From an uncultured Anaerolineales bacterium (GTDB lineage: Bacteria > Chloroflexota > Anaerolineae > CG2-30-64-16), in contig CAZYHE010000002.1 of NCBI GenBank assembly GCA_964647225.1, positions 1,655 to 34,787 on the forward strand: DNA of 33,133 nt, written 5' to 3'. Below, in pieces: positions 10,619 to 27,522 of the stretch. How positions within the stretch are numbered: position 1 is the first letter of the stretch; each line of letters starts with the position of its first letter. The position numbers and the translations under genes were made by a program. Below the pieces are notes generated by a model, which was not told the DNA's origin, did not search any database, and saw nothing but the letters and a program-made list of their open reading frames with translations.

Positions 10619-11818
10619 CTATTCAGAGCTGCGTATTTCATCCACGGCTTCCACCATCGCCGCGAAGTTCTCGGGCGGGATCGGCGGGTTGATCTCGCTG
10701 GACGTGTCTATGAAGATGCCGCCGCGCTGGAGGGCGTCCGGCTCCCGGATGATGCGGTGGACCTCGTGGCGCACCTGTTCGGGCGTGCCGCGCTCCATCA
10801 GATCCACGCCGTCCACCCCGCCGGCCCAGGTGTGCTGAGGCCACGCCCGGCGCAGCGCGACGATGTCCATCCCCAGCGCCGGCTCCAGGCAATAGAAGCC
10901 GTCCACCCCGCAAGCGACCAGGTCGGGGATCACCTGCTGCCAGTTCCCATCGCTGTGGTAAAGCACCTTCAGCCCGTAGTCGTGCCAGGCCGCGGTCAGG
11001 CGGCGCACGTGCGGGAACAGCTCGCGGCGCAGGAATGCCGGGCTGAAGATCGGCCCGCCCTTCGACGCAAAATCCTCCGCGATCAGCACCACGGGCGTGA
11101 GCGCCGGGTCGGCGATGGCGTGCAGCCGGGCAAGCTCGCAGTCGGTGTAAGCGCCGATGTAGCCGGAGATGACTTCCGGCCAGGCGTCATACAGATAGAT
11201 GAAGGTGTCCAGCCCCAGCCGATACCAGCACTCACAGAACCCAGTCTGGATCGAGAAGTCCACGATGACCGTCTCGCCGATCAGCTTCTGCAGGCCGGTC
11301 ATGTAGCGCCGGTAGTTCTCGCGCTCCTGATCGGCGTCGAAGCTCGCCTGTGCCTCGCGCGCAACCGGGACGATGCCCGGCGGGTAGCCGTAGCCGCCGC
11401 GACGGCCCAACCGCCGCATCCGTTCGGTCTTGCGCAACAGGAAGTCACGCGCACCCGCCAGGTCAGCGAACGGCCGGCGGACGATCATCGAGTGCCAGTT
11501 GTCCTGCTGGATCAGGAAGCCGTCGGCGTCCACGATCTGGCGGACGCCCAACGGCGCGACGGGCGGGAAGCAGGCATCCAGCGTCCGGCGGATGGTCGCG
11601 CAGATGTCCGCGTAGCTGTAGTCGAAGTCGCGGATCCTCTTGCCGGTGTAGCGGGCGATGACGCCGGGATTGTAGCTCAACTGCTCGTGGAGCACGGCGC
11701 GATCCACCGGCTGGTTTGCCAGCGTCCGCTCGACGCGCGCGCGTTTCGAGAGGCGATCGGCCGGAAAGAGCTTCTCGAATGACCCGTCCTGAGCGCAGTC
11801 GAAGGAATCACCGCTCAT
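10619..11818 (-). CDS. Uroporphyrinogen decarboxylase (URO-D)/MtaA-like TIM-barrel family protein, function unknown
   Basis: ORF 10619..12049 trimmed to ATG 11818, which overlaps the GH42 stop as ATGA. The C-terminal half GLKVLYHSDGNWQQVIPDLVACGVDGFYCLEP...GTPEQVRHEV resembles URO-D_like proteins. The N-terminal tail carries a family-A repeat copy (SFDCAQDGS). Confidence 0.6.
   Translation of the reverse strand: MSGDSFDCAQDGSFEKLFPADRLSKRARVERTLANQPVDRAVLHEQLSYNPGVIARYTGKRIRDFDYSYADICATIRRTLDACFPPVAPLGVRQIVDADGFLIQQDNWHSMIVRRPFADLAGARDFLLRKTERMRRLGRRGGYGYPPGIVPVAREAQASFDADQERENYRRYMTGLQKLIGETVIVDFSIQTGFCECWYRLGLDTFIYLYDAWPEVISGYIGAYTDCELARLHAIADPALTPVVLIAEDFASKGGPIFSPAFLRRELFPHVRRLTAAWHDYGLKVLYHSDGNWQQVIPDLVACGVDGFYCLEPALGMDIVALRRAWPQHTWAGGVDGVDLMERGTPEQVRHEVHRIIREPDALQRGGIFIDTSSEINPPIPPENFAAMVEAVDEIRSSE
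11786..11805. repeat. Family-A repeat copy (CTGAGC-N-GTCGAAGG unit) inside the URO-D-like gene
   Basis: GTCCTGAGCGCAGTCGAAGG, translated on the minus strand as SFDCAQDG. Confidence 0.7.
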
Positions 11819-14130
11819 CGTTCCACCACCAGCGCGGCCACATCCAGGCTCTTGACCGTGAGCACGACCTGATCCCCACGCCGCTCGAACGGCTCGCCAA
11901 GCAGGCCCCGGACCTCCCGATAGCCCGCCACATCCACCGACTCGCTGATCTTCTCCGGCGTGGGGTTCGTGAAGAGCCAGGCTTCCCGGTCTCCAGCGAT
12001 CCGCTTGCGTAGGAGCAGCCGACCGGTGTGTTCCGGCAGCACACCGCACTCAGCCAGCAGCACCCGCACCGCCGCCCGCGTTTCTGCATCCCGGTACGCC
12101 GTGCCGTTGTGCCCGACGTAGGTGCCCAGGAGCCAGGCCCGGCCCTTGCCCGCCCACCGAACTGTGCCGGCAGTCGTGGACGCCACGACGGCATCGCCAT
12201 GGCGCAGCAGCGGCTCACAGCCGTCCCCTCCGCGCCCTGAGCCTGTCGAAGGGCCTGCGCTCGGCGAAGGATCGAAAGTCTGGAGGTAAACATTCGCCCG
12301 TATCCGGTGTCCGGCCAGCGGCCCCGCGCCCTCCAGCATGATCGCATCCACGTATTCGCCCCAGGTACGCTCCGGCGGCGACCAGCGCGGCAGGCTGCCC
12401 GGCTCGCGCACCATCGTAAAGCTGCGCTGCGTGACCCCGAACAGGTCGGCCAGGGTTGGCGACAACTCGCCCCGGCGGCAGAAGCCGTGCTCGTCAATGC
12501 GGCCCGGCGCGGCCTCGCTAATCAGGTTGCCGCCGGCCTCGACGTAGCGCGCCAACTCACGCGCTACCTCCTCGGACAGGCTCAGTGGGAAGGGCAGGAT
12601 CAATGCCCGGTAGTCGCCGACGTGCGCTTCGTCCAGTTGGGAGGCTTCGACGAAATCAACCGGGATATTCAGCTCCCACAGCAGCCGATACCACCCGCGC
12701 ACGCTGTAGGCCAGGTGCTCGTGGCCCTGCGCCATCAGTTGGGTGAGCTGGTAGTTCCACTCATCAACCAGGATCGCGACCTGCGCCCAGGGCCGCGTGG
12801 GTTGGCCGAACAGGTCGGGATATTGGTTCAGCGCGTTCCCGATCCGAGCGGCCTCCGCATAGCGCGGGGCGCTGTCGCCCGCGCTGTCCAGCAGGCTGAA
12901 GCCGTTCGCCTCGGCCACGTGGATCTCGGCGCGCGTCACCCAGAACGAAAGCGCGGTGATCCCCGCGCCGACCGCGGTCAGCATCCACCGGCGCATGTCG
13001 GCGGGATCGGGCACGCGGCCCTTGTGGAAGCCGGTGCTCACCGGCCCGCCCTGGAATTCGGCCGCCCAGACCGGGTTTCCCCCCTTCGACGTGCCCTTCG
13101 ATAAGCTCAGGGTGCTGCTCAGGGCGGCGCGGCGGTTGCACGAGCGGATATAGTCGAAGCGCAGCGCCACACCGTCGGCCAACTCGGCCAGGAGGCACGC
13201 GTGGCGCGGCAGCGGTTCGCCAGCCGCAGGGCGGCCGTCGTCCCAGGGCTGGAGCGAGTTCCACGCGGGGTAGCACGATGAGCCGAGGAAATCCTGGCAG
13301 CGGGCATAGGTCCAGTCCTGCCCCGCGCCAATGATGGGCGCGCCCTTGTGCGCAAAGACCGGCCGGCCGAGCGGGTCCGCCTCCCGGATGGCTCCGGCGC
13401 GGGCGCGCAGCACATTGGCGATCTGGACGTTGTCCATGAAGTAGTGCCAGTCAATGTTCCCCGGCTGCGGGTAGCGCACCATCGCCAGCCGGTCGGGCGT
13501 CACCGACTCCCAGTCGCCATAGCGGGTGTTCCAGGCCCGGTTCAGCCCCTCCAGGTCGCCGTAGCGCGCCCGCAGCCACGCCCGGAACGCGGCGAGCGTG
13601 TTCGCGCAATAGCAGACGGGCTGGCCGGCGAACCGCTCGGCCCAGTAGCCGATCTCCTGCCAGGTGTTCCAGCAAACGATGTTCTCGAAGCGGCCCAACG
13701 TCCGCACCAGTTCCCGGATGAAGCGCAGTTGGTCCGCCAGCGCGCCCGGATCGTCGAAGCAGGGGCCGGGCTTGCCGTCGGCCGGGAGGGTGGTCTGCGC
13801 CTCGTAGGCGATGGGCAGGCCGTTGCGGCCGACCATCCGGCAGCCGGGATGCTTGCGCCACAGCCAGGGGGGCGCCTGCTCGCACGTCAGCCCCAGGTAG
13901 ATGCCCAGGTCGAGCCGGGCGGCGTGCTCGATGAGTTCCTCATAGCGCGAGAAGTCGTAGCGTCCTTCCACCGGCTCGTCAATGGCCCAGTGCTCCTGGA
14001 GCTTGATCAGGTTGAAGCCGTGGCGCTTGAGGTTTTCCATGTCCCGCTTGAGTTCGGACATGGGCGGCATTGGCTCGCGGCACAGGTGCGAGCCGATGGG
14101 AAAAAGCTCACCGAAACGTTCGACGTTCAT
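11815..14130 (-). CDS. GH42 beta-galactosidase
   Basis: ORF 11815..14175 trimmed to ATG 14130 (ATGA overlap with the upstream stop). Motifs: KRDMENLKRHGFNLIKL, WAIDEPVEGRYDF, CWNTWQEIGYW. A trimerisation-type middle region and a C-terminal domain are present. Carries two family-A repeat copies. Confidence 0.85.
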   Translation of the reverse strand: MNVERFGELFPIGSHLCREPMPPMSELKRDMENLKRHGFNLIKLQEHWAIDEPVEGRYDFSRYEELIEHAARLDLGIYLGLTCEQAPPWLWRKHPGCRMVGRNGLPIAYEAQTTLPADGKPGPCFDDPGALADQLRFIRELVRTLGRFENIVCWNTWQEIGYWAERFAGQPVCYCANTLAAFRAWLRARYGDLEGLNRAWNTRYGDWESVTPDRLAMVRYPQPGNIDWHYFMDNVQIANVLRARAGAIREADPLGRPVFAHKGAPIIGAGQDWTYARCQDFLGSSCYPAWNSLQPWDDGRPAAGEPLPRHACLLAELADGVALRFDYIRSCNRRAALSSTLSLSKGTSKGGNPVWAAEFQGGPVSTGFHKGRVPDPADMRRWMLTAVGAGITALSFWVTRAEIHVAEANGFSLLDSAGDSAPRYAEAARIGNALNQYPDLFGQPTRPWAQVAILVDEWNYQLTQLMAQGHEHLAYSVRGWYRLLWELNIPVDFVEASQLDEAHVGDYRALILPFPLSLSEEVARELARYVEAGGNLISEAAPGRIDEHGFCRRGELSPTLADLFGVTQRSFTMVREPGSLPRWSPPERTWGEYVDAIMLEGAGPLAGHRIRANVYLQTFDPSPSAGPSTGSGRGGDGCEPLLRHGDAVVASTTAGTVRWAGKGRAWLLGTYVGHNGTAYRDAETRAAVRVLLAECGVLPEHTGRLLLRKRIAGDREAWLFTNPTPEKISESVDVAGYREVRGLLGEPFERRGDQVVLTVKSLDVAALVVER
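12234..12270. repeat. Family-A repeat copy plus a degenerate second unit inside GH42
   Basis: GCCCTGAGCCTGTCGAAGGGC followed by CTGCGCTCGGCGAAGG, translated as ...SAGPSTGSGRG. Confidence 0.65.
13082..13125. repeat. Family-A repeat copy in opposite orientation, with both halves duplicated, inside GH42
   Basis: CCCTTCGAC gtg CCCTTCGATAAGCTCAGGG tgctGCTCAGGGC, translated as ALSSTLSLSKGTSKGG just upstream of the AAEFQGG segment. Confidence 0.7.
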
Positions 14131-15362
14131 CGCATCTCCTTCCAGGCCGAGATCATGGCTTCGACGCTCGACCACGGCGTGTCCGGGAAGAGCGCGTCCA
14201 CGGGCGCAAGGATGAAGCCGGCAGGCCCGAGTGTCGTCAGCGCGTGGCGCACCGCCGCCCGGATTTCATCTGCCGATCCGCTCGCCAGCGTGACGCCGCT
14301 GTTGATCCCGCCCGCGAGGGCCATCCGCCCGCCGAGTTTCGCTTTGACCGCGGCAAGATCGGCCTTGTCCTGCACCGGGTCGGCGTAGTAGAGCACGTCC
14401 ACGCCGGCCGCCAGCAGGTGGTCGGCCATCGCCAGGACGCCGGTCGTCATGGTGTACCCGAACCGGGCGCCGGCCTGATGCGCCATCCGCACGAGGCCGG
14501 CCAACGGCGGCAACAGGAAGCGCTCGAAGAGCCGCGGCGACCAGAAGTCGGTTGAGCTGTACCAACCGCGCTGCATGACCACATCCACACCGCCCACATC
14601 GAGCATCAGCTCCGTGCGGCGCCGGTCGAACGCCGAGACGATTCCCATCAGCTCACCGAAGAAGGCAGGCGCTTGTTTCGCGGCCAGCACAGCCGCCTCG
14701 ACCCCCATCAGCCACACGACCAGATCCATGCCGAACGCGCTCCAGCCCGCCACGGGCACCCCCTCGGCGTCGGCGAAGCGGCGCACGGCGGCCATGCGCG
14801 CACGGTAGGCGGACAGTTGCTCGGCAGTCGGGTCGCACAGCAGGTAGCGCAGCTTCGGCAGGTCATCCGGCCCGACCACCGCATGCCGCACCCCGCGCGG
14901 GATGTTGAAGTCCTCGATCAGCGGGACGTGGTCGGGCTGCACCACCCAGCCGGGCGGCGTCTCCTCGGCGGTGCGGCGCACGATGTGGCGCAGCGGGCCG
15001 GCCGGCGTGTCGTATTCCCGACCGAGCAAGGCGTAAGGCTGGCCGGGGGTTGGCGGTTCCTGCCAATCTCGCACGCGGACGTCCGGGTGGACGCTCCACG
15101 GCGGCGAGACCTCGATCACGTCGTCCACGCCCAGTCGGCGCCAGGCGCGCACCCGCTCGAAATCATCTTCGGGCAGGCGCCACGGCTCTGGGAGGGTGTG
15201 GATGTGTTCCAGGCGACCGGTGAACCAATGGGTCACGGCCCGGCCATCGCGCGTCCACGTCAGGTGTGCGGGCGGCGCGAAGCCGAAACACCAGCAGGTG
15301 AGCGGGACGTGGTCGGGCCGCCCGCCGCGGATGGCGGTCAGGAGGCATTCTCGTGAATTCAT
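14127..15362 (-). CDS. URO-D/MtaA-like TIM-barrel family protein, paralogue of 10619..11818, function unknown
   Basis: ORF 14127..15509 trimmed to ATG 15362 (GGAGG about 6 nt upstream). Strings: ECLLTAIRGGRPDHVP; ...GYTMTTGVLAMADHLLAAGVDVLYYADP...GSADEIRAAVRHAL. The layout parallels the other URO-D-like ORF. Confidence 0.55.
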   Translation of the reverse strand: MNSRECLLTAIRGGRPDHVPLTCWCFGFAPPAHLTWTRDGRAVTHWFTGRLEHIHTLPEPWRLPEDDFERVRAWRRLGVDDVIEVSPPWSVHPDVRVRDWQEPPTPGQPYALLGREYDTPAGPLRHIVRRTAEETPPGWVVQPDHVPLIEDFNIPRGVRHAVVGPDDLPKLRYLLCDPTAEQLSAYRARMAAVRRFADAEGVPVAGWSAFGMDLVVWLMGVEAAVLAAKQAPAFFGELMGIVSAFDRRRTELMLDVGGVDVVMQRGWYSSTDFWSPRLFERFLLPPLAGLVRMAHQAGARFGYTMTTGVLAMADHLLAAGVDVLYYADPVQDKADLAAVKAKLGGRMALAGGINSGVTLASGSADEIRAAVRHALTTLGPAGFILAPVDALFPDTPWSSVEAMISAWKEMR

Positions 15363-15429
15363 GGGACCTCCGAATGAATTCGGGGCGAAGGGGCGTTCCG
15401 CCACGAGGTCGGCCTGCGCCGACCGAATT

Positions 15430-15453
15430 GGGCGTCCATGCAGATGGACGCCC
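15430..15453 (-). other. GC-rich stem-loop (10-bp stem, 4-nt loop) in the 140-nt gap after the isomerase gene
   Basis: GGGCGTCCAT gcag ATGGACGCCC. A second hairpin GGTCGG cctgcg CCGACC lies at 15407-15424, and a palindrome CCGAATgaATTCGG at 15370-15383. No U-tract follows, so the function (terminator, processing or stability element) is unresolved. Confidence 0.35.
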
Positions 15454-15502
15454 GGCGCCGCAGCGCCCATCAGATGCGATTTCAATCGCCCAAACCGATG
15501 CA

Positions 15503-16843
15503 TTAACAACCGACCATCCCCGCCAAATCAGCCAGCGGCTGCCGCAGGTCGCCGTATGCCGCCATCCAATGGTGGCCCAACCCCTCGCGGGCGATCCAGC
15601 CGAAGATCGCCCGGTAGTCTTCCCGGAACCGCACGCGCAGCGGATTGCCAGGAAAGACCATCTCGGTGGCGATGGCCTCGCCGTGCAGGGCGGCCATGCG
15701 ATAGCCGTTCAGACCCGGCACGATGTTGAGCAGCGTCACCGGGCCGGGGCGGGCGGGGAAGAGGCAGCACAGGCCGCGATCCATCAAGCGCACCGGCCCC
15801 AATGTGATCTCTGCCGGGTTTGCGGCCAGGGAGAAGCCGCCGGAGCCGCAATGCGAGAAGACGATGGCGTTCTCGGCCGGGATCGGATCCAGGAGGTCGG
15901 TGTTGTGCACCGGCTGGCCGGTCAGCCTTGTCAGCAGCAACATGCCGAGCGCCGCGTTGATGTCCCCTTCGCACGCCACCGGGATCCCCGCCTCCCCCAA
16001 CAGCGACGCGGCCAGGCAGACCTCGCCCATCAGGTGCGGGTAACAGCCGATGGACACCGCCGAAAGGCCCAGTTCCGCGACCGTGGCGCGCAGGGCATGG
16101 GCCACCTGCAGCGACGCGATGCCGGCATCCGCCGTCGCCGTCACCCGGCCGACCTGCCCGCCGAGCGCCTGCCAATCGGACGCCAGCGGGAGCACGTCCA
16201 CCTGCGCGGCCCGCTCCAGGAAGACTTTCGTGTCCAGCCCGACCACGCGCGGCCCGAAGGTGCGTTTGAGCGCCAGCTCGTGGACGGTGGTCTCGGTCAT
16301 CCCCTCGACGCGATGGCCCAGGTGGCCGATGCGCGCCCGCCGGAGTTGGCGCGCCAGGCTCGCCGCGGCGGCGAACTCCCGCGCCCGCCGCAACCCGGTC
16401 GCTGAGCCTGTCGAAGCGTCAACCAGCCCTTCGACAAGCTCAGGGCGCGGTTCATCGAACAGGAAAACGTAGGGCCGGCCAAGCTGCTTGAGCATGAAAC
16501 ACAACTGCTGCATCCCGCACAGCGCGCCGGTCTCCATGCCGGGACGCGCCCAGGCGACGACTGGGACGGGGCACTCTTCCAGCAGATCGAGCACCAGGTA
16601 ATCCTCGAACCAGGACGCGGCGATGGCGATCACGGCGTCAACGCGCTGGTCGTAGAACGCGCGGCCCGCGGCCACGGCCGCGTCCGGGGTGGTCACAACC
16701 ATGCAGCCGGCGATCTCGATCGGCGGCGAGCCTGGGGCGCGGAACGCCACTTCCAGGCGCGCCAGCAGCGCCGGCGCGTCCCCCGCGCCCACTTCCAGCG
16801 GGCTGGCAACGGCGATCAGGCCGAGACGGATGGGTTGGGACAT
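15503..16843 (-). CDS. L-fucose/L-arabinose isomerase-like sugar isomerase family protein
   Basis: ATG 16843 with AGGAG 6 nt upstream. Motifs: SIGCYPHLMG, PVACEGDINAALGMLLL, FSHCGSGG and a C-terminal domain typical of FucI/AraA-like isomerases. Contains a complete hairpin copy of the family-A repeat. Confidence 0.65.
   Translation of the reverse strand: MSQPIRLGLIAVASPLEVGAGDAPALLARLEVAFRAPGSPPIEIAGCMVVTTPDAAVAAGRAFYDQRVDAVIAIAASWFEDYLVLDLLEECPVPVVAWARPGMETGALCGMQQLCFMLKQLGRPYVFLFDEPRPELVEGLVDASTGSATGLRRAREFAAAASLARQLRRARIGHLGHRVEGMTETTVHELALKRTFGPRVVGLDTKVFLERAAQVDVLPLASDWQALGGQVGRVTATADAGIASLQVAHALRATVAELGLSAVSIGCYPHLMGEVCLAASLLGEAGIPVACEGDINAALGMLLLTRLTGQPVHNTDLLDPIPAENAIVFSHCGSGGFSLAANPAEITLGPVRLMDRGLCCLFPARPGPVTLLNIVPGLNGYRMAALHGEAIATEMVFPGNPLRVRFREDYRAIFGWIAREGLGHHWMAAYGDLRQPLADLAGMVGC
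16401..16446. repeat. Complete family-A element (both orientations, hairpin-forming) inside the isomerase gene
   Basis: GCTGAGCCTGTCGAAGcg tcaaccag cCCTTCGACAAGCTCAGGGC. The arms are complementary with one mismatch. Translated as PELVEGLVDASTGSA. Confidence 0.75.
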
Positions 16844-16852
16844 GAGCGGCTC

Positions 16853-18250
16853 CTACGACCTGATCTCGATAGCATCGAACGTGACCCGGCCATCCTGGCA
16901 GCCGATGAAGAGCCGGTCGCCGCGCACGTCGGGCACGCGATTGACGAGGGTCCGCCGCCGATCTACGCACACGTCAATGATGTCGCCCCGGGCGATCACC
17001 GCCAGTTCGAAGGGCCGGTCCAGCCCCTCGACCTCGTAGATGGCCGCGCGCTCCTGCTCTTGGGCGTCCCCCTGGCGGAACGCCGAGACGCCGGCGCTGC
17101 CAGGACGCAGCCACCCGACCCTGCCACGGGCCGGCTCGAAGCGCAGAACCAGGCCGTCCTGATACGAGCCGGAGCCTCGGAAACCCAGCTCGAAGTTGCC
17201 AGTGCCTGGCTCGGGCCGCACTTGGACGGTCAGGCGCAGGTCGTGCGGCAAGCCCTCAAGTGCAGCGACGGCCATTCCCGCCTGTGCGCTAACATCGAGG
17301 CGGCCGTCATCCCAAGTCAGGCCCTCCGTGAGGGGCGTCACCCGCAACGGCACGGTCTCGCCGCCCGTGAGAGTCATCTCGGCCGGGAACTTCGTGCCCA
17401 AGCTGCCGTCCCCGTGCTGCACGATCTCCCGGAACACGGCGTTACCGGCGTAGGCGTGGGGTGGCTCGCTAGTGAGGAACGCGACCCCCAGGCGCCGGTC
17501 TCCGGTGAAGGCCGCGGTCTTGAGCACGGCCGCCTTCGGCCCATCGAAGATGTCCTGATTGGGGCGCAGCCACGGCCCGAACGGCCCGCGCGAGAAGCGG
17601 TAGCGCGCGACCCCCAGGTGGCTAAAGATCAGATAGTAGAAGCCGCGCCATTCGAAGTAGTCGGCGCACTCCGGCTGATGGCCAATGTTGCCCGGCACCA
17701 AGAACGGCCCTTCGTGCCGCCAGTCGCGCAGGTCGGCGGAGGTCAGGTGAGCCAGGCAGCCCCCACGGCCTGCCAGCGGGTAGTCCGCCAGCTCCGCGGT
17801 CACCAACATGTGGAAGCGACCGGTCTGGGGATCCCGGAATACGCACGGATCGCGGTAAGGGCCTTTGCGGTAGGGTGGCTCCGGCGACGCGAACGGATTC
17901 GGGGACGCTTTGGTGAAGCGGATGCCGTCAGTGCTGGTCGCCACGCTCAGGTGTTCGGTACGGTCGGGCAACCGTGTGGCGTAGAAGGCATAGAACACAC
18001 CATCATGGAAGAAGACCGATCCGGTGCAGATGGAGGCTTCCCACTCGTGTTCTATTGCCAGCGCCAGCGGATGATGCTCCCAATGCACCAGATCGCGCGT
18101 CGACGCGTGCGCCCACTGATGACCGCCCAGCCCGCCCTTGCCCTGGTGATGGCCTTCGTCCAGCAGGTAGTATAGGTGAAAGACGCCCTCATGGTAGAAG
18201 GGCATGCAATCGCCCACGAAGAAGTCGCCTGCGGGTTTGAAGTATTGCAT
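16853..18250 (-). CDS. GH32-like (clan GH-J) beta-fructofuranosidase family protein
   Basis: A five-bladed propeller signature is visible by eye. VGDCMPFYHEGVFHLYY sits at the nucleophile position, with an RDP motif (YRDPCVF) and an EC motif (PECADYF). A C-terminal beta-sandwich-like region is present. GGAG lies upstream of ATG 18250. Confidence 0.7.
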   Translation of the reverse strand: MQYFKPAGDFFVGDCMPFYHEGVFHLYYLLDEGHHQGKGGLGGHQWAHASTRDLVHWEHHPLALAIEHEWEASICTGSVFFHDGVFYAFYATRLPDRTEHLSVATSTDGIRFTKASPNPFASPEPPYRKGPYRDPCVFRDPQTGRFHMLVTAELADYPLAGRGGCLAHLTSADLRDWRHEGPFLVPGNIGHQPECADYFEWRGFYYLIFSHLGVARYRFSRGPFGPWLRPNQDIFDGPKAAVLKTAAFTGDRRLGVAFLTSEPPHAYAGNAVFREIVQHGDGSLGTKFPAEMTLTGGETVPLRVTPLTEGLTWDDGRLDVSAQAGMAVAALEGLPHDLRLTVQVRPEPGTGNFELGFRGSGSYQDGLVLRFEPARGRVGWLRPGSAGVSAFRQGDAQEQERAAIYEVEGLDRPFELAVIARGDIIDVCVDRRRTLVNRVPDVRGDRLFIGCQDGRVTFDAIEIRS

Positions 18251-18253
18251 GGC

Positions 18254-20041: not shown

Positions 20042-21204
20042 GGGGTATCTCCAGATCGGCCCCGCCAGAATTGCATGCCGGGGCATTCGCAGAATTGCCA
20101 CGCCACCTCGCCGACCGGCGAATCGGGCCACGCCTGGGCCAGGATCGCCAGGCAGAGCGTGCGGAACCAGGTGGGGAACATCGCCGAGACATCCGGGCCG
20201 GAAGCCATGAGCGGGTGGCCGTAGGCGAAGGGCTGCCCGCGCATGAAGACGAAGCCGCCGTCGGGGTTCTGATTGGACAGCACCCACGGCAGCGCCCGGC
20301 ACAGCGCGGCCCGGATTTCGTCCCCGCGGTGCGGCGTCACCGTGGAGAGCCGCGCCAGCGGGTCAATGGAGTCAATGTCCTCGCATGCGCTCGAATTCCA
20401 CGGGTCGCGGCGGTTGTGGACATCCCAACCGAAGCCCCCGCGCGGATTCTGCGTGCGCAGCACGGTGTCAATCGCCCGTTCGGGGTAGGGCACCGGCACG
20501 TGGTCATAGAAAAAGAGCGGCCAGAAGTGATAGGCCGCCTGCACCTCGTCGGACAAATTGAGCGGGGCGGCCAGATCCTTGTAGCCCCACACCCCCGCGG
20601 CCGCGTCCAGGTGATGGCTTGCCAGCCAGGCCAACAGCCGGCGCATGGCATCCCCGGCCTGAGGGTGTCCCTGGAAGTCGCGCGCGTATTGCAACAGCGT
20701 GCCGACGTTCATCACCTCGTTCCCGGCGAAGGCGGGCGCGTCCCGCCAGGCGCGCTGCGCCAGCCACTCCTCGACCCCGCCGGGCGCGATGAAGGGGTCG
20801 AGCCAGGTCTGCGGCTTCTCGGCTGTCGCGCCCAGGCAGGTGAGGGCCGTGACCACGTGACACGACAGGTGCCGCCGGCCGCACCATTCCGGGTCATCCT
20901 TGTACCACCCCTCGCCGTAGATGGCCGGATCACGGAACAGGCCGTCGTCATCCTGGTGCGCCTGGAGATAGGCGATCCACGCGCGCCGATCGCGGTCGCC
21001 CAGCCCGTCCAGCTCGCCGAACAGGTGGCGCGTCATCGCGGCATAGGCCGAGGCATAGAGCACCGGCTCCGCCATGCCTTCTGCGTAGAGGTAGCGGCCG
21101 TAGGGTTCCCCTGGGGCGCGCATCCGCTCGACGTACGCGAGGGTGGCATCGCGCAGACGCGCGGCTTCTGCGGTCAGGGTACGTTGGGTAGCTTCGGTGG
21201 GCAT
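20020..21204 (-). CDS. Alpha/alpha-toroid protein with prenyltransferase / squalene-cyclase-like repeats, function unknown
   Basis: ATG 21204 (GGAG upstream); GTG 21216 is the alternative. Repeat-like strings: HQDDDGLF, QNPRGGFGW, QNPDGGFVF. The 3' end overlaps the GH2 start by 22 nt. Confidence 0.55.
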   Translation of the reverse strand: MPTEATQRTLTAEAARLRDATLAYVERMRAPGEPYGRYLYAEGMAEPVLYASAYAAMTRHLFGELDGLGDRDRRAWIAYLQAHQDDDGLFRDPAIYGEGWYKDDPEWCGRRHLSCHVVTALTCLGATAEKPQTWLDPFIAPGGVEEWLAQRAWRDAPAFAGNEVMNVGTLLQYARDFQGHPQAGDAMRRLLAWLASHHLDAAAGVWGYKDLAAPLNLSDEVQAAYHFWPLFFYDHVPVPYPERAIDTVLRTQNPRGGFGWDVHNRRDPWNSSACEDIDSIDPLARLSTVTPHRGDEIRAALCRALPWVLSNQNPDGGFVFMRGQPFAYGHPLMASGPDVSAMFPTWFRTLCLAILAQAWPDSPVGEVAWQFCECPGMQFWRGRSGDTPCEKSSN

Positions 21205-21261
21205 GGTTGGCTCCACTTCATCAATTGTAGGAACACAGATGCAATGGGGGAAGTCGCTCCC

Positions 21262-21290
21262 CGTATATCATTCTCCGCCCGCATTGTCAA
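21262..21290 (-). promoter_or_regulatory. Candidate sigma-70-type promoter between GH38 and the downstream genes
   Basis: The minus strand reads TTGACA (21290-21285), then a 17-nt spacer ending in TGA, then TATACG (21267-21262). It lies in a comparatively AT-rich 96-nt gap. Confidence 0.35.
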
Positions 21291-21300
21291 ACAGCGGGGC

Positions 21301-24300
21301 CTACGCACTTGGGCTTCCGCAGGTCGCCAGCAGACCGGTAGCAGGAAACCGCCGCGCCCCGCGACAGCGCACCGTCGTCAGCCCGTGGGCCGCGAGGGAC
21401 GCCTCGAAGGTGTGTGGCGTGCAAGGCAGCCGCGCCTGGTCTTCTTCCACCAGGTTAGTCTGCCACGCCTCGCCGATGTCGAAGTATGGCAGGCGCACGA
21501 TCGCCCGCAGATCCTCGCCCGCGGTCTCGGCCAGACGCAGGATGAGGCCGTCCCCATCCTCCGCGGCCTTCAACGTGAGCAGCACGACGCCGGGCGCGTC
21601 CACGCCGCAAAATGTATCGGATGCCGGCAGCGGGCCGTCCTGTGGGCCGATCACGTAGGCGGTCACGGGGCAGACGGCCGCCTCCCAGCCGAGGGCGCGC
21701 GACCGGGCGCGCTCGTGCTGGCCGTCGTGCGTGGTGATCGCGTAGCGGAAGAGCGCATCGGTCGCCTGCACGGGCTGGAAGTTGGTGCGGAAGTTGTTGT
21801 TCATCACATAGGAGTAGATGTGCCCGTGCCGCAGTTCCTCGGGGGCGCGCAGGAACGCGTGCCCATAGCCGGGCGGGGTGACGCCGTGGTGGGCTTGCGA
21901 GACGTAGCCGGGCCACAGGCCGCCCAGTTCAACGATGGGCGCTTCGAGGCTGCTCCACGCGACCCCGCCGGCCCGGTCGTGCATGCTCACCCAGTGCTGG
22001 ACGGCGTAGGCGTCGGTGTTGGTGCCCGGCAACTGGTCGCGGATCGGCTCGATCACCGCGTTGCTGGCCTCGTAGGCGAAATGGGGATCGTCAAGGGCGA
22101 AGGGGAAGGCCAGGTGCAGTTCGAGCAGCGGCGTGGCATCGCGCAGGATGCGCGTCGCCAGCTCGATCCGCTTCACCCCCTCGAAGAGCGTGATCTCCTG
22201 GGTGATCTGCGGGCAGCCGTGCGCGCTGCTGCGCACGATTAGGCTCGCCGCCACCGGCCCCGCGCTGCCGCGGCGCAGAGCGACGGCGCCAGTGAGGGGA
22301 TCGCCTCTGATGCTTGACTCCTGCCCCCTGACTCCTGCATCCTGACCCCTGGCCCCTGGTGGCTCAACGCCCGTGCGCGGATCGCGGACCACCAGTTGGT
22401 TGAACGGGTGCGGCGCGTGGGCGTCCACCCACTCCCGGCCAAGCTCCTTGTCGAAAATGCTGCGGATCGCACCGGTGGCCGGATCGAGCGCGACCCGGTA
22501 GAAGCGGTTCTCCAGCCAATCCTCGCCGATCCGCAGGCTGCTCGCGAACTCGGGCCAGCGGTCGCAGGGCTTGTCCTGAGCACCGCCGAAGGGCTTGTCC
22601 TGAGCAGTGTCGCAGGGCTTGCCCTGAGCGCCGTCGCAGGGCTTGTCCTGAGCAGTGTCGAAGGGCCGGAGGCGGTAGGCGCGATAGCCGAGCGGTGGGA
22701 GGTCATGGGCCAGGAAAACAAGCTCGCACAGATGGCTCCGCTGGTAGTTGAGCGCGGGATGGCTGTGGGCGTCGGTGTGGCCGAGCGCGTAGTGCTGCGC
22801 GGCCCAGGGTTGCGCAGCCAGCGGGTCGTCCAGGATGTTGACCTGGCACGGGACGACCGCGCCGGTCGCCACGTCTACCAGTTCGACTTGTCCTGAGCAC
22901 CGCCGAAGGGAGGGACGCTCCAACAGCTCGGCCGGCAGGCTGACCCACGGCCGGCCGAGGATCGAGCTGGACACGCGCTGCGCGGGCGCGCCGGGCTGGC
23001 TGCCCGGCCGCCAGTAGAACGGCCGGCTGGCCGGCTCGGCCGCGCTGGCGCGCGCCCGTACGATGGCGTCGCGCGGCCAGTTCAGCGGGTTGAAGACGAC
23101 CAGGTGATAGCCGTCATCTGGCAGCCGGACCTGGTCGGCGATGCGGTGGGCGCTCTTGGTGAGGACATCGTGCGCCAGGGCCGCGCCGCGATAGGCAAGC
23201 TCGCCCTTCTGGCTCCAGCACGCATCCTGGGCCGGCCCGATCGGTTGGGCCATGCCCCAGGTGTGCTCGTCGTAGAGCAGCGCGCAGTCGTAGGCTTCGG
23301 CCAGCGTATCGGCCGGATAGATATAGTCGCTAACCGAAGCGGCGCATGCAGCCAGCTTCTCGGCCGAGCCGAGCAGGTCGTGGGTCAGGCGGTTGACGCC
23401 GGTCTCGCGGGGCGTGCTGATCGCGCCGACCGTGTAGTCGGTGTTCGGGAGGTCGCCGCGCAGCACGGGCAGGCGGTCGCCGGCGGCCCGCTCGAATTGC
23501 TCGAAGAACGCCGTGTTGGTGGAGACGATCAGCCGGGGATAGGCCCAGCGGTCGTTCCATTCGCAGGCGATCCGGCTGAGCCGGACGTCCGGCGGCGCGT
23601 TGTCGCGGTTGGCACCGTGGAACTTCACCCGAACCAGGTCGTGCGGATAGCCGCCCTCGGTCAGCCCGGCGAGGTAGCGCGCGAGGTTGGTCTCGGCCTG
23701 GTCGCAGGTCCACAGCCCCGGCCCGCTGATGGTGCCGCCCGCATACCAGAAGAGCACCCGCTGCCCGTCCGGCCCTTCCCACCAGAACGCGCCGGGCAGC
23801 TTGCGCGGCAGGATCGCCTGCTCGTCCCAGTGCGGATGTACGGTCATGCCCCAGGCGAAGTAGTCGGGGATGCCCGCCGCGAAGTAGCGCACGCCGGCGC
23901 CGGCCAGCACGCTCGCCAGCCCCCAGGAGACACCGGGGATGTCGTTCAGTTCGGCGGAGCGGATGGGGACACCGAAGCGCCGGGCAAGAGCGAACGCGGG
24001 ATAGAGCAGCCGCACCTGCTCCTCGTGCCCGCACAGTTCGCTCGTCTCGTTGCCCAGCAGGGCGGTCAGCTCGATGCGCCCCGCGCGCAGCCAGCGCGCC
24101 AACCGCTCGACGGTCTCAGGCGGCCGGTGTTGGACGTAATGCTGCACCGACCACGCCTGCTCGATCACATAGCGGAAGCGGGCTTCCTCCGGCCAGTCGG
24201 CCGTCTCGTCGCAGCCATCCAGGACGGCATCCAGAAAGGTGTCGTGCTCGCGTAGAACGTTGCTGGGCAGGTCGGTGTAGCCCAGGTCGTGGTGCGAGCC

Positions 24301-24645
24301 ATGCACCAGGTGGACCTGCCACCGCCGCGTGGGCTGCCAGGCCAGTTCCAGCCGGTCGAGCAGCGTCTCCCCGGCCAGGAGACTGAACGTCACGGGGCCG
24401 CTTTCGGCGATTGCGGGGATGAAGACGCGCTGGCGGTTGACGCCCGCGGCGACCGGATCCAGGCGCACCTCCATGCGCTGGCCGGCGAAGGTCACAACCA
24501 CCGCCAGCGTGTCGGCTCCGCGCTCGCAGGAGAGGGTGATGTCCACGGCTTGCTGGAGGCCCGTATTTGTCTGCCGGAAAAACGGCGTCGGCTGGACGGC
24601 GGTCAGGCGACACGCCAGCCGGCCTGCTGGGTCAAGATCATTCAT
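21301..24645 (-). CDS. GH38 alpha-mannosidase family protein
   Basis: ATG 24645 with GGGAGGG upstream. It has a GH38 N-terminal metal-site motif VHLVHGSHHDLGYTD, then LGNETSELCGHEE, and long middle and C-terminal domains. Carries a 24-bp tandem array, a lone 24-mer and a heptamer array. Confidence 0.85.
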   Translation of the reverse strand: MNDLDPAGRLACRLTAVQPTPFFRQTNTGLQQAVDITLSCERGADTLAVVVTFAGQRMEVRLDPVAAGVNRQRVFIPAIAESGPVTFSLLAGETLLDRLELAWQPTRRWQVHLVHGSHHDLGYTDLPSNVLREHDTFLDAVLDGCDETADWPEEARFRYVIEQAWSVQHYVQHRPPETVERLARWLRAGRIELTALLGNETSELCGHEEQVRLLYPAFALARRFGVPIRSAELNDIPGVSWGLASVLAGAGVRYFAAGIPDYFAWGMTVHPHWDEQAILPRKLPGAFWWEGPDGQRVLFWYAGGTISGPGLWTCDQAETNLARYLAGLTEGGYPHDLVRVKFHGANRDNAPPDVRLSRIACEWNDRWAYPRLIVSTNTAFFEQFERAAGDRLPVLRGDLPNTDYTVGAISTPRETGVNRLTHDLLGSAEKLAACAASVSDYIYPADTLAEAYDCALLYDEHTWGMAQPIGPAQDACWSQKGELAYRGAALAHDVLTKSAHRIADQVRLPDDGYHLVVFNPLNWPRDAIVRARASAAEPASRPFYWRPGSQPGAPAQRVSSSILGRPWVSLPAELLERPSLRRCSGQVELVDVATGAVVPCQVNILDDPLAAQPWAAQHYALGHTDAHSHPALNYQRSHLCELVFLAHDLPPLGYRAYRLRPFDTAQDKPCDGAQGKPCDTAQDKPFGGAQDKPCDRWPEFASSLRIGEDWLENRFYRVALDPATGAIRSIFDKELGREWVDAHAPHPFNQLVVRDPRTGVEPPGARGQDAGVRGQESSIRGDPLTGAVALRRGSAGPVAASLIVRSSAHGCPQITQEITLFEGVKRIELATRILRDATPLLELHLAFPFALDDPHFAYEASNAVIEPIRDQLPGTNTDAYAVQHWVSMHDRAGGVAWSSLEAPIVELGGLWPGYVSQAHHGVTPPGYGHAFLRAPEELRHGHIYSYVMNNNFRTNFQPVQATDALFRYAITTHDGQHERARSRALGWEAAVCPVTAYVIGPQDGPLPASDTFCGVDAPGVVLLTLKAAEDGDGLILRLAETAGEDLRAIVRLPYFDIGEAWQTNLVEEDQARLPCTPHTFEASLAAHGLTTVRCRGARRFPATGLLATCGSPSA
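22315..22356. repeat. Heptanucleotide tandem array (6 units, TGNNYCC) inside GH38
   Basis: TGACTCC TGCCCCC TGACTCC TGCATCC TGACCCC TGGCCCC, translated as GARGQDAGVRGQES (7-aa periodicity). Confidence 0.75.
22561..22666. repeat. Tandem array of 4.4 family-A 24-bp units inside GH38
   Basis: Units: GTCGCAGGGCTTGTCCTGAGCACC / GCCGAAGGGCTTGTCCTGAGCAGT / GTCGCAGGGCTTGCCCTGAGCGCC / GTCGCAGGGCTTGTCCTGAGCAGT / GTCGAAGGGC. Translated as PFDTAQDKPCDGAQGKPCDTAQDKPFGGAQDKPCD. Confidence 0.85.
22887..22910. repeat. Lone family-A 24-mer inside GH38, identical to 22570-22593 but read in another frame
   Basis: CTTGTCCTGAGCACCGCCGAAGGG is identical at both sites. Here it is translated SLRRCSGQ; in the array it reads PFGGAQDK. 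Confidence 0.85.
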
Positions 24646-24687
24646 GGGCAGCCCTCCCTCTGGGCGCGTGACGGCCTTCTTCCACGA

Positions 24688-27522
24688 TCACTGACCCGCC
24701 GGGCCAATGCGCCACGATGCCTCAAGCGCCGCGGCCGGGTTCCCCGTCGCGTCCAGGAAGAGATAATCGGTTGGGTCGTCCGGCCGATAGAAGAAAACCT
24801 CGAACCTGTACTTGTCCTGAGCACCATCGAAGGGCCGGCCCGCCGCCGGGGGCACGCGCAGCGTGTGCGTAGTCGTGATGGTCGCCGCACCCTGCCAGTC
24901 GCGCACCAGGTCGCGGCCGCCGCTGAGCGCCCGGTCGTCCTGCGCCGCCATCTGCCCGGCCGCGTCGAGGAGGCGGGCGCTGATGCTGTAGTCGCTCGCG
25001 GGCCGGTCGAGCAGCCGCCAGGGGAGGGTGACGGTGACGGTCTGGCCCCCCGCGACCGCAAGCTCGGCGGTTTCCACTCCAGTTGCAAAGATCATGGCGA
25101 GACCCGTCGTTTGGGTCAAAGCAATCTCGCCCGCCGCGGCCTGAATCGCCAACAACTCCGTCTCATTCATCGCCGCGGTTACCGCCACCTCCTGCACGAA
25201 GGGCGGCGCGGCCACCCGCGCATCATCGGCCGCCAACCGCAGCCGCTGCGCGTGCGCGCCGCCGGCCGGCGGTCGGGGCAGATCGAGGGGGATCACGCTC
25301 CCCGCGTCCACCAGCAGCGGCAGGCGGACGCGCACCTCGAACGACTGGCCGGACGCGCCCCCGGCTGCTTGCCACGCGCCCCGCACGCGCAGCGGCAGCC
25401 CCGGCGGGATCATGATCTCACGCCCACCCGGCGCGGCCAGAAGCAGAAAGGCCTGACCGTCGGCGGTACTCCAAAAACGGCCGGCCACGGGGCCGATGTT
25501 CGGTGACGCCGGCGGCAGCCGATAAACCCATTCCGGGCCAAACTCCCGTTCGAGACGGACGCCGGACATCCCTCGCGTAGCGAACACATCTCGCAGCGCG
25601 GCCGCCCGCCCCGGCGCAAACGCCTCCATCACCGCGCTGTGGACGATCACCCGCTCGACCCCCAGCCCTCCCAGCAGCGCCAACGAGCGCGCGTCCGGGA
25701 AATGCGCCAGCGTCAGCCCCAACTCGCGATGGTGCGGCGGCACGAAGCCGCTGTAACCGTCGGCGGTCGGCTGCCAGTGGCCGGTCTGGAAGTATTGGTA
25801 GCGCAGCAGGTTGTAGTCGGGCCAGGCGAGCGACGACGCTTCGGCAAACCCGACATTCGCTAAGCCTGTCGAAGCGCCCGCCAAGGGCCGCGGCAGCGAC
25901 GCCATTTCCGATGTCAGCGGCAGCTCGATGATCGTCGTGGCTGGCTGCTCCGCCAGCCACGCGTAGAGCGGCGCGGTCGCCTGCCGGGCGGGCGGCATCG
26001 GCTGGACGGCGAAGCGGCCCAGCCCGCCCGCATACTCAGCCAGGATCAGCAGCGCCAGGGCGGCCGTCACAATGTAACGCAATCTGCCAGCTTGCCCGTC
26101 TCCCCGCCGCAATCTAGCAGATTGCGTTACAACGGTGCGCGCGCCCAGCGCCGCCAGCATTGCCAGCGCCAGGAAGGCCGAATTGGCAAAACGCCCCGGC
26201 GCGCGGATGGCGGTCATGCCGGGCACATGCTCATAAAGCCAGCCGAACGGTAGCGCCAGCCCGCCGGGATCCGCCGCGGTGAGCTTCAATTGCGGGCCGA
26301 GCGACAGAATGACCGCGGTCAGCACCAGCAGGAACCAAAAGCCGCGCCCCAGCCCGGTCTGGGGCCGGCTGCGCCGGATCAGCAGTCCCAGTGCGGCCAA
26401 CCCCAGGACGACTACCCCCGGAAACAGCCCGCCCTCAGCCGACGCCCCCCCCGGCAGCGCCCGGTAGAACGGGTTGGCGACGGGCGGCCGCACCCATTCC
26501 GCCAGCGTGGCCGCGTTGCGCAACGTCTCTCCGATCGAACGCTCCAGCCCCAGCTCGCTCCGCACGCGCAAGTAGGGCGCGGCGAATGGCGCGATCAGCA
26601 CGGCGGCCAGCGCGATCCACGGCAGCATGGCGATGAGACGATGTACAATGTAAGATGTACGATGTAGGATGTACGATGTAGGATGTACGATGTAGGATGT
26701 ACGATGTGTGGCCGATGGCTGATTCCTGCCCCCTGCCCCCTGCCCCCTGCCTCCTGACTCCTGACTCCTGCTCACCACCCGCGCCCCCACGTACAACCCC
26801 ACCGCCAACGCGACCTGAAAGCCATAATAGAACGCCGAGAGGGTCTGGAAGGCTGCGCACAGGGCAAAGAGGAAGCCATCCCGCGGCCGGCCGCGCGTCC
26901 AGAAGCGATCCAAGAAGAGCAACGTCAGCGGCAGCCAGGCGATGCTCAGCAGTTGGAGTTGGCTCAGGTGGCCGAACTGATGGGGCGAGAAGGCATAGAT
27001 CAGGCCCGCGAGGCACGCCGGAAGCCGGTGGCTCGTCATCCGCAGCGCCAGCAGGTATGCGCCGAGGCCCGCCAGCGGGAAGGCCGCCAGGAAAAAGAGG
27101 TTGTAGACAAGCACCGGGTTGTCGGTAGCGGCCAACAGCGGCACGGTGAGCGGCGAAATCGGCCAGAGGATCTCGGAGAAGGCCAGCGCGTTCGGCAGGG
27201 GATGGAAGATCGGCGCGTCGAACAGCGCCCACGGCGCGCGCGGGAGAATATGCGCCTGCCAGGCGATGATCCAGGTGTTGAGCGCCGTATCCGAGCGGTC
27301 GTGCAGGCCCGCGCCGAGCTTGGGGAGGAGCGGCGCAAAGAGCAGGAGGGTCAGAGCGATGTAGGTCAGGAATGCCGGGAGCGATCCGCAGATGAGCGCA
27401 GATGGACGCGAAAACAGGCGGCCGGCATGGCCCGGTATCCGGCTTGCTGCTGGTTTTGTGGTATCATCGTGTCGCAACACAACACCTATCCATGAGGTCA
27501 AACCCAATGCCAACCCCATCAC
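24688..27522 (-). CDS. Large polytopic membrane protein (about 11 TM segments plus a ~430-aa C-terminal soluble domain); GT-C-like glycosyltransferase candidate
   Basis: Hydrophobic segments run throughout the first ~500 aa. There is an acidic first loop (GLHDRSDTALNTW), and the C-terminal domain contains GYSGFVPPHH. The start is uncertain: ATG 27522 would overlap the divergent phosphodiesterase start. Heptamer arrays are embedded at 26641-26768. Confidence 0.5.
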   Translation of the reverse strand: MMGLALGLTSWIGVVLRHDDTTKPAASRIPGHAGRLFSRPSALICGSLPAFLTYIALTLLLFAPLLPKLGAGLHDRSDTALNTWIIAWQAHILPRAPWALFDAPIFHPLPNALAFSEILWPISPLTVPLLAATDNPVLVYNLFFLAAFPLAGLGAYLLALRMTSHRLPACLAGLIYAFSPHQFGHLSQLQLLSIAWLPLTLLFLDRFWTRGRPRDGFLFALCAAFQTLSAFYYGFQVALAVGLYVGARVVSRSQESGGRGQGAGGRNQPSATHRTSYIVHPTSYILHRTSYIVHRLIAMLPWIALAAVLIAPFAAPYLRVRSELGLERSIGETLRNAATLAEWVRPPVANPFYRALPGGASAEGGLFPGVVVLGLAALGLLIRRSRPQTGLGRGFWFLLVLTAVILSLGPQLKLTAADPGGLALPFGWLYEHVPGMTAIRAPGRFANSAFLALAMLAALGARTVVTQSARLRRGDGQAGRLRYIVTAALALLILAEYAGGLGRFAVQPMPPARQATAPLYAWLAEQPATTIIELPLTSEMASLPRPLAGASTGLANVGFAEASSLAWPDYNLLRYQYFQTGHWQPTADGYSGFVPPHHRELGLTLAHFPDARSLALLGGLGVERVIVHSAVMEAFAPGRAAALRDVFATRGMSGVRLEREFGPEWVYRLPPASPNIGPVAGRFWSTADGQAFLLLAAPGGREIMIPPGLPLRVRGAWQAAGGASGQSFEVRVRLPLLVDAGSVIPLDLPRPPAGGAHAQRLRLAADDARVAAPPFVQEVAVTAAMNETELLAIQAAAGEIALTQTTGLAMIFATGVETAELAVAGGQTVTVTLPWRLLDRPASDYSISARLLDAAGQMAAQDDRALSGGRDLVRDWQGAATITTTHTLRVPPAAGRPFDGAQDKYRFEVFFYRPDDPTDYLFLDATGNPAAALEASWRIGPAGQ
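24811..24835. repeat. Family-A repeat copy inside the membrane-protein gene (C-terminal domain)
   Basis: CTTGTCCTGAGCACCATCGAAGGGC, two mismatches from the GH38 unit. Translated as PFDGAQDK. Confidence 0.75.
25859..25877. repeat. Family-A half-unit inside the membrane-protein gene
   Basis: GCTAAGCCTGTCGAAGCGC, one mismatch from the left arm at 16401-16418. Translated as GASTGLA. Confidence 0.55.
26641..26710. repeat. Heptanucleotide tandem array (10 units, ATGTASG) inside the membrane-protein gene
   Basis: ATGTACA ATGTAAG then (ATGTACG ATGTAGG) x3, ATGTACG, ATGTGTG. Translated as HRTSYIVHPTSYILHRTSYIVH. AT-rich against the GC-rich background. Confidence 0.85.
26720..26768. repeat. Heptanucleotide tandem array (7 units, TGNNYCC) inside the membrane-protein gene, 9 nt from the ATGTASG array
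   Basis: TGATTCC TGCCCCC TGCCCCC TGCCCCC TGCCTCC TGACTCC TGACTCC, the same unit family as 22315-22356. Translated as SQESGGRGQGAGGRNQ. Confidence 0.85.

Follow-up and report, generated by a model that had tools for sequence, protein, structure and literature searches.

A very small DNA repeat found in frame within genes of a sugar-utilisation cluster from an uncultured Anaerolineales bacterium

How can one short piece of DNA recur inside unrelated genes, be read in several frames and interrupt none of them? The question is raised by a 33,133-nucleotide stretch of a contig from an uncultured Anaerolineales bacterium (CAZYHE010000002.1, positions 1,655 to 34,787; hereafter the window, G+C 68%), where a first-pass annotation, made from the letters alone, had pointed out eight loci carrying a short repeat within protein-coding genes. 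Our analysis indicates that these are probably copies of a DNA repeat that is very small, non-coding and non-autonomous; the cassette, ~21-26 nt long (24 nt here), would be copied in trans and sieved by selection. Its core, CTGAGC-N3-5-CGAAGG, comes with 4-5 bracketing bases that tend to complementarity, and the cassette is likely part of a cross-phylum superfamily.

Insertions within genes and their empty sites in relatives

All eight loci quoted in the first-pass annotation are present in the window. Its strict regular expression matched 2 sites, while a relaxed pattern of the unit retrieved 11 units from the 33 kb, where shuffled sequences would give 0.67. Two types can be told apart: type a, GCCCTGAGCYTGTCGAAGGGC, with 3 window matches at up to 3 mismatches (0.01 expected from shuffles), and type b, the 24-mer CTTGTCCTGAGC-N4-YCGMAGGG, with 7 matches (0.02 expected). 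The motif is far above chance in the window. Translation of the copies shows five different frames in use, giving SFDCAQDG, PFDTAQDK.. and PFDGAQDK in one, PSTGSG, STGSA and ASTGLA in a second, and SLRRCSGQ, LSLSKG and RPELVEG in the remaining three. One frame out of six holds TGA. This pattern needs no special cause, because of that TGA and because only multiple-of-three inserts in tolerant loops survive.

The copies were compared with a syntenic relative (L001, 80-91% amino-acid identity with the window) and two more distant ones (L123 and L125). Each copy is missing in orthologues at 65-88% identity; some are confined to the window, and the others are shared with its closest relatives at most. 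Presence tracks relatedness, some copies being found in the window only, others in the window and L001 or L129, others in the window, L129 and L127. The density of units falls from 11 in the window to 2-3 in L001 and 0 in both L123 and L125. The insert sizes are 24, 24, 24, 24 (the last in the L001 isomerase), 48, ~42 and ~39 nt, plus a 72-nt difference in one array. On this comparison of sequences, all eight loci are lineage-specific in-frame insertions inside real genes.

The sharpest cases lie in the GH38 gene (21301-24645, minus strand, significant Pfam match) and in a gene for a YfhO-like membrane protein (24688-27522, minus strand). The solo GH38 copy is a 24-nt type-b unit at 22887-22910 (plus strand) that reads SLRRCSGQ. 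It is found in the window only, L001 and L125 having an exact 24-nt gap, and it is identical to an array unit of the same gene at 22570-22593, 317 nt away. The empty site reads CGTCCCT^TCGAG. A second 24-nt type-b unit, at 24811-24834 (plus strand) in the membrane-protein gene, reads PFDGAQDK; it is shared with an 87% relative (P0121/L129), and P0123 and seven more orthologues show a clean 8-aa gap, with the empty site GGGCCG^GTACA in L127. A target-site duplication was sought at these two clean empty sites (22887 and 24811) and none was found, the insert being exactly 24 nt.

The GH38 gene also holds a tandem array at 22561-22666 (plus strand), with 4.4 type-b units of 24 nt that read (PFDTAQDK/PCDGAQGK)n. 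TRF reports a period of 24 x 4.4 and also a period of 48 x 2.2 at 91%; the 48-nt period indicates that the array grew by duplication. L001 has ~1.4 units at this site, i.e. a 72-nt difference from the window, and L125 has an unrelated insert in the same loop. In the neighbouring membrane-protein gene, the copy at 25859-25877 (plus strand) is an old, decaying type-a unit, GCTAAGCCTGTCGAAGCGC, with the stem GCGCT/AGCGC, and reads GASTGLA. The insertion (roughly 8-11 aa) is also present in P0121 and P0123, down to a 78% relative, and is missing from P0124 onward; it has diverged differently in each lineage that carries it.

The GH42 gene (11815-14130, minus strand, significant Pfam match) hosts two insertions, both slightly larger than the spans first quoted. 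At 12217-12258 (plus strand), ~42 nt hold a type-a unit at 12234-12254 and read ..AGPSTGSGRGGDGC... Besides the window, only P0001/L001 has this 14-residue insertion, in diverged form; in an alignment of 12 orthologues it is missing from P0002, P0003 and all the rest. Of the second 'half copy', at 12255-12270, the larger part aligns with ancestral orthologue sequence. The other insertion, 48 nt at 13081-13128 (minus strand), lies in the catalytic domain and reads AALSSTLSLSKGTSKG. Its coding strand consists of GCCGCCCTGAGC, AGCACCCTGAGCTTATCGAAGGGC and ACGTCGAAGGGG in succession, i.e. a 24-nt unit nested at the centre of another, and 12/12 aligned orthologues, the 91%-identical P0001 included, have a clean 16-aa gap at this place. 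The L001 GH42 gene has a 15-nt insertion of its own (GGRGV, at the equivalent of window 12860-12880), which is missing in the window and the other orthologues and does not belong to the unit family.

The remaining two loci are in the URO-D-like gene (10619-11818, minus strand, significant Pfam match) and the isomerase-like gene (15503-16843, minus strand). The former carries a 24-nt type-b-like unit, CCCGTCCTGAGCGCAGTCGAAGGA, at 11783-11806 (plus strand), common to the window and L001 and missing in L123. This copy lies just 3' of the GH42 stop and could be taken as intergenic, a placement ruled out by the URO-D-like start: the ATG at 11818 overlaps the GH42 stop as ATGA, in an arrangement identical in L001, so that the unit occupies codons 5-12 and reads SFDCAQDG. 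In the isomerase-like gene, 16401-16446 is an inverted pair of type-a units on opposite strands (16401-16418, plus; 16426-16446, minus) with an 8-nt spacer, which reads RPELVEGLVDASTGSA; the plus-strand unit carries the compensated stem CGCT/AGCG. About 39 nt are missing here in L123 and L125, and L001 retains one degenerate 24-nt unit.

The inserts are mostly precise cassettes of 24 nt, and all of them keep the reading frame. The alignments show sharp-edged inserts without target duplication at sites that are empty in close relatives, as well as nesting at unit centres, expansion of a tandem array and drift like that of ordinary coding sequence. The last point is drawn from inserts common to the window and its relatives, which are identical at 118/134 nt (88%; insert windows approximate) compared with 84-92% in the surrounding gene. 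The inserts diverge about like their surroundings, and the units therefore behave as ordinary coding sequence after insertion.

The inserts are not artefacts of assembly, since an independent Logan assembly (SRR12261224, L128) agrees with the window at 99.89% over 11.2 kb (15441-26683) without a gap, a span that covers the copies at 16401, 22561, 22887, 24811 and 25859. A wrong stitching of repeats into genes during assembly or binning is hardly conceivable for further reasons: relatives from other samples carry several of the inserts with point differences, and every insert keeps the reading frame. It is true that L128 ends inside a heptamer repeat at 26683 and that many genome matches lie near contig ends.

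To see where the inserts fall in a protein, we used an AlphaFold2 model of GH42 (mean pLDDT 90.7, pTM 0.94). The 16-residue insert is the sole long stretch under pLDDT 50 (residues 337-349, between a helix at 309-331 and a strand at 355-359), and the second insert falls in a low-pLDDT loop at residues 621-650. Both are predicted to be disordered loops.

The host genes belong to a tightly packed minus-strand sugar-utilisation cluster that spans ~9.3 to 27.5 kb of the window and encodes a BNR-repeat protein, the URO-D-like protein, GH42, a second URO-D-like protein (14127-15509), the isomerase-like protein, GH32, GH2, a 398-aa protein, GH38 and the YfhO-like membrane protein. The first-pass annotation had considered the family assignments of the flanks confident throughout. 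This holds for GH42, GH38 and the URO-D-like gene. The isomerase-like protein gave no match in a Pfam search and only a distant NCBIfam match to sulfoquinovose isomerase (E 3e-32, below cut-off), and the membrane protein has sub-threshold Pfam matches only, yet 272 homologues.

Other repeats occur in the same genes. Heptanucleotide tandem repeats lie inside the reading frames of the membrane protein (26638-26707 and 26724-26771) and GH38 (22315-22358), with ACGATGT and a 14-nt period, CCTGCCC, and TGACTCC as their units. The membrane-protein loop at aa 251-296 is hypervariable, and orthologues have other heptamers there, (GTCAGTT)n and (GTCAGTG)n. The Logan assembly breaks within the repeat at 26638-26707, and the membrane protein (P0122) is called as 646 aa in that public assembly, with a start downstream of the repeat region (26683). 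At the exact site of the 25859 copy, P0125 carries (VEAPVGS)n, a tandem repeat with a 21-nt unit, and P0131 has (LQPSTLN)n in another membrane-protein loop; the same loops have been struck repeatedly by different repeat families. In GH38, the loop near residue 763 (22289-22405; about 2990-3030 in L001) is an insertion hot spot that holds heptamers in the window, a type-a unit, CCCTTCGACAAGCTCAGGGC, in L001, and neither in L125. An orthologue of the second URO-D-like gene is split into two open reading frames (ORFs) of 293 and 103/119 aa in L123/L124 (8803-10004) and may be a frameshift or pseudogene.

Folding of the unit and its occurrence across bacteria

The repeat had been described as palindromic. 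The fold of a single type-a unit, with 4-5 bp closing an 11-nt loop, has -2.5 to -3.7 kcal/mol (z about 0) and is no better than that of shuffles, and the type-b unit gave no fold in the folding test. The sole significant hairpin is that of the inverted pair in the isomerase-like gene (-13.9 kcal/mol, z -3.2). Single units are not true palindromes, and the description applies to that pair only. A hammerhead-like reading of CUGA..GAA was dismissed on inspection, the G8-A9 core being absent, and an Rfam search at gathering thresholds over the window and 11 repeat-rich loci returned only one tRNA and one SRP RNA, with no family matching the unit.

We next consider the distribution of the unit. 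The exact type-a 19-mer, scanned in one genome per species, was found at at least 120 loci in at least 18 bacterial phyla, as counted from record titles. The matches listed include Bacteroidota, Cyanobacteriota, Actinomycetota, Chloroflexota, Acidobacteriota, Planctomycetota, Nitrospirota, groups of the candidate phyla radiation (CPR) and others, as well as Alpha-, Beta- and Gammaproteobacteria. Isolates are among them, such as Microbacterium, Microlunatus and Desertihabitans (Actinomycetota) and Sphingopyxis, Sphingobium and Porphyrobacter (proteobacteria). IMG/VR viral contigs also carry the 19-mer among the matches listed. The first-pass annotation had mentioned similar peptides from Chloroflexota. 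This fits, as a GH42 cluster of 76% identity is named Anaerolineae bacterium at NCBI, so that the window probably comes from Chloroflexota, class Anaerolineae. The family, however, extends far beyond this phylum.

More related cores lie close by in 51/120 of the listed loci (84 cores compared with 4 in shuffles). Copies recur in typical contexts such as ccgttcg-unit ... inverted unit-cgaacgg. The conserved part is CTGAGC-YTG-TCGAAG. The flanking 3-5 bases are variable yet complementary (CCCT/AGGG, GGGCT/AGCCC, GTGGT/ACCAC and others), with at least 4 perfect pairs adjoining 21% of cores as opposed to ~0.7% of scrambled cores. The flanking stems covary. For type b, 122 copies show conservation that breaks off one base beyond the 24-mer. 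Position -1 has G in 75% and position +24 has C in 59%, nothing further out is conserved, and one unconstrained loop position is G in 122/122 copies. Of the type-b units, ~18% are found at the apex of a longer hairpin that is not itself conserved, against 3% of random positions. A rule by which hairpin apices are the target was considered and rejected, since it fits only these ~18% of type-b units and no genic site.

That no copy in the window is intergenic had been taken as the opposite of REP (repetitive extragenic palindromic) and MITE (miniature inverted-repeat transposable element) behaviour. This does not stand. Only ~4% of the window is intergenic, as estimated from the ORF list and Pfam-supported gene calls, and random placement would leave 0/8 loci intergenic with a probability of 0.96^8 = ~0.72. 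The absence of intergenic copies therefore carries no weight: the window has only genic copies because it is ~96% coding, and eight genic loci out of eight argue only against an intergenic preference stronger than ~10-fold. As a proxy for genic location elsewhere, we asked for at least 60 stop-free codons on each side of the unit. The 19-mer meets this proxy in 34% of cases compared with 70% of random positions (11% versus 53% in low-GC genomes). It is depleted from long open frames, and thus mostly intergenic in other bacteria. Among the matches listed for metagenomes, the type-b 24-mer is far more weakly depleted (38% versus 60%).

Genic copies are nevertheless found elsewhere in frame, in Pfam-verified domains: the editing domain of LeuRS (PFDGAQDK again), Mfd, the helicase domain of HsdR and the M17 peptidase domain of a Saccharibacteria genome. 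At one CPR locus (L014 339-432, Staskawiczbacteria), the 19-mer adjoins the 3' end of a tRNA gene on the opposite strand. Sister unit families were also observed, with the same architecture of stem, GAGC-N-CGA, stem: GTCATTCTGAGC..CAGCGAAGAATCTC and GTCATTGCGAGC..GCAATCTC. They occur in the variable GH38 loop of L125 (aligned to 22530-22720), in L121, L301, L039 and L085, and in other genomes; the sister units of L121 and L301 are split at the centre by a type-a or type-b unit.

Possible origins of the copies

How might the units spread? We propose that they would be copied in trans, by an activity encoded away from the copies. The agent could be a REP-type single-strand (HUH/Y1) enzyme recognising a mini stem-loop or, instead, template switching or repair copying from existing units. 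The covarying stem and conserved loop hint that a small single-stranded stem-loop is what is recognised, in the manner of REP and IS200/IS605-type HUH enzymes. Selection would then act as a sieve, with genic copies persisting where their length is a multiple of three, where they are read in one of the five stop-free frames, and where they fall in a surface loop able to accommodate 8-16 additional residues.

Several points weigh against this account. A mechanism based on hairpin recognition is weakly grounded because type b does not fold at all and the folds of single units are no better than those of shuffled sequences. No gene family recurs near the copies in the 120 listed genome loci, and no HUH/Y1 (RAYT-like; RAYT, REP-associated tyrosine transposase) transposase was obvious by eye among 29 unit-flanked ORFs. 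Mobility itself is deduced from presence and absence among relatives, the two clean empty sites are too few for a target rule, and the census of units for this organism rests on a 33-kb window. The counts from collection scans are lower bounds and not abundances.

Copying without any dedicated transposition is unlikely to account for the family, although parts of the evidence suit it. Here, template switching or repair synthesis off nearby or dispersed units would be aided by microhomology, and arrays would grow by slippage. The newest insert (22887-22910) has an identical donor in the array unit 22570-22593, 317 nt off, and its empty site, TCGA^AGGG on the unit strand, matches the 3' end of the unit itself over 8 nt. 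The array is duplicated with periods of 24 and 48 nt, and the search for a transposase near copies gave none (120 listed loci and the unit-flanked ORFs). However, the empty site in the membrane-protein gene, GGGCCG^GTACA, is unlike the unit, sharp identical cassettes in unrelated flanks across phyla and viral contigs are hard to obtain by microhomology alone, and covarying stems suggest a recognised structure. The same covariation, with a core conserved across phyla and 18% of type-b units at apices of longer hairpins (3% at random), could also be expected of functional elements held by selection, be it a protein-binding site, an mRNA structure tuning translation or decay, or a recombination signal. 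We regard this as improbable, since orthologous copies decay at about the gene's rate and differently from lineage to lineage, the units point either way with respect to transcription and lie at unrelated positions of unrelated genes, and close relatives without copies keep the genes intact. Selection at the protein level, on a peptide repeat or linker common to the host proteins, is most improbable: the GH38 array does encode a regular 8-residue repeat, and FDxAQD is common to three proteins, but five frames of the same DNA give unrelated peptides, the inserts are missing in all but the closest orthologues, those of the GH42 model are predicted disordered loops, and elsewhere the same DNA is commonly found between genes. 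In particular, distant orthologues do not carry the same peptides at the same positions. The claim of the first-pass annotation that this is a nucleotide-level repeat in coding DNA, seen in open frames only, and not a conserved peptide motif is upheld by the five frames, by the absence from orthologues and by the gene-like divergence of the shared copies.

The small cassette copied in trans and sieved by selection can be extended into a bolder proposal, which we put forward only tentatively and with some doubt. The window would show one lineage's burst of an undescribed pan-bacterial superfamily of ~20-26 nt cassettes, with a conserved CTGAGC...CGAAG loop and a freely covarying 4-5 bp stem, spreading inside genomes without a linked transposase. 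Such cassettes might insert into hairpin apices, each other and genes, be carried by viral contigs and routinely remodel protein loops, those of essential genes such as LeuRS included. If true, this would imply widely shared copying machinery, as yet undescribed. And if the conservation of the core reflects a machinery that mobilises or recognises it, the 15-nt core would make such machinery directly searchable.

The loci are a clean example, replicated several times over, of selfish or neutral DNA that adds new loops to enzymes, and the filled and empty alleles in close relatives are useful for studying how proteins tolerate or recruit insertions. There is a practical side as well: such units give rise to spurious 'hypothetical proteins' and disrupt both assembly and gene calling, as with the membrane protein that was started downstream of its repeat. 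A family model would improve the annotation of metagenome-assembled genomes.

Relation to known small repeats

In-frame repeats are known as a kind; the specific family, its behaviour as a 24-nt cassette and its cross-phylum conservation appear to be new. A literature search by concept returned REP and REPIN work and not this family, and a text search of 8 million papers for the unit, sister-unit and peptide strings returned unrelated primers only, which is not proof that the family is undescribed.

Rickettsia palindromic elements (RPEs) are reportedly 100-150 nt long, roughly, and clearly palindromic. They are known only from Rickettsia, whereas the unit described here has 24 nt, is barely self-complementary and has its core in at least 18 phyla. 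The likeness lies in in-frame insertion into functional genes, where the added peptide is tolerated owing to its place outside the functional core; the loop location is found here too. RPEs are described as non-coding repeats in frame within protein-coding genes in PMC3733652, summarising Ogata et al. 2000; RPE lengths are not stated in that paper, in which RPE-4 and RPE-6 count as short REPs.

The GTAG/CGTC REPs surveyed in the same paper (Di Nocera et al. 2013, PMC3733652) are mostly extragenic, with a minority inside ORFs that include tRNA synthetase and DNA-repair genes, and in the Chloroflexota member Thermomicrobium roseum they are inserted into small palindromes. The intragenic minority resembles the LeuRS and Mfd copies found here, and insertion into small palindromes resembles the type-b units at hairpin apices. 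Extragenic predominance is shown by type a across genomes and weakly by type b (38% versus 60%), in a comparison to which the window, with 8/8 loci genic but only ~4% of its length intergenic, adds little. However, neither the unit nor its flank logo has a GTAG or CGTC tag, REP stems are conserved where ours are 4-5 bp around a conserved 11-12 nt loop, and a REP is a 20-40 nt imperfect palindrome with a stable stem-loop, which single units do not form. The unit sequence was sought in Di Nocera et al. 2013 and its supplements (PMC3733652) and is absent there.

In the REPIN-RAYT system, non-autonomous short repeats form hairpins as inverted doublets, and mobilisation in trans has been proposed (PMC3116915, Bertels and Rainey 2011). 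The isomerase pair and many genome loci are similar inverted doublets. REPINs, however, are specific to their lineages, pass on by vertical inheritance and are linked to a RAYT gene that they flank, whereas here single 24-nt units insert alone, the core crosses phyla and no RAYT was seen in the 120 listed loci or 29 ORFs. MITEs differ further, being 70-300 bp long with terminal inverted repeats and target-site duplication, as opposed to 24 nt and no duplication at the clean empty sites. Of tandem repeats, a minisatellite is resembled only by the array at 22561-22666, with its head-to-tail copies (4.4 versus ~1.4 units in L001), and protein tandem repeats differ in that no distant orthologue has the same peptide at the same position.

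The closest match is with the small dispersed repeats (SDRs) of cyanobacteria. SDR4-6 units are reportedly 21-27 nt long; they lie in stretches that are conserved apart from the insertion, and one unit may sit inside another. By description only, the likeness extends to a very small dispersed unit, to precise presence or absence at orthologous sites and to nesting (13081-13128, and the L121 and L301 units inside another family). In the parts of the literature consulted, SDRs of ~20 bp without coding capacity are thought to be mobile (PMC2884548), and the SDR4-6 of Nostocaceae are cited from Elhai et al. 2008 (Genome Res 18:1484) in PMC5861425, PMC2884548 and PMC3116915. For HIP1-enriched cyanobacteria outside Nostocaceae, SDR-like repeats have not been reported (PMC5861425, PMC2884548). 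The family described here differs in being pan-bacterial and, in the window, mainly in coding DNA. Altogether, the unit departs from the REP definitions that were tested (tag, stable palindrome) and from that of a MITE, and behaves most like an SDR.

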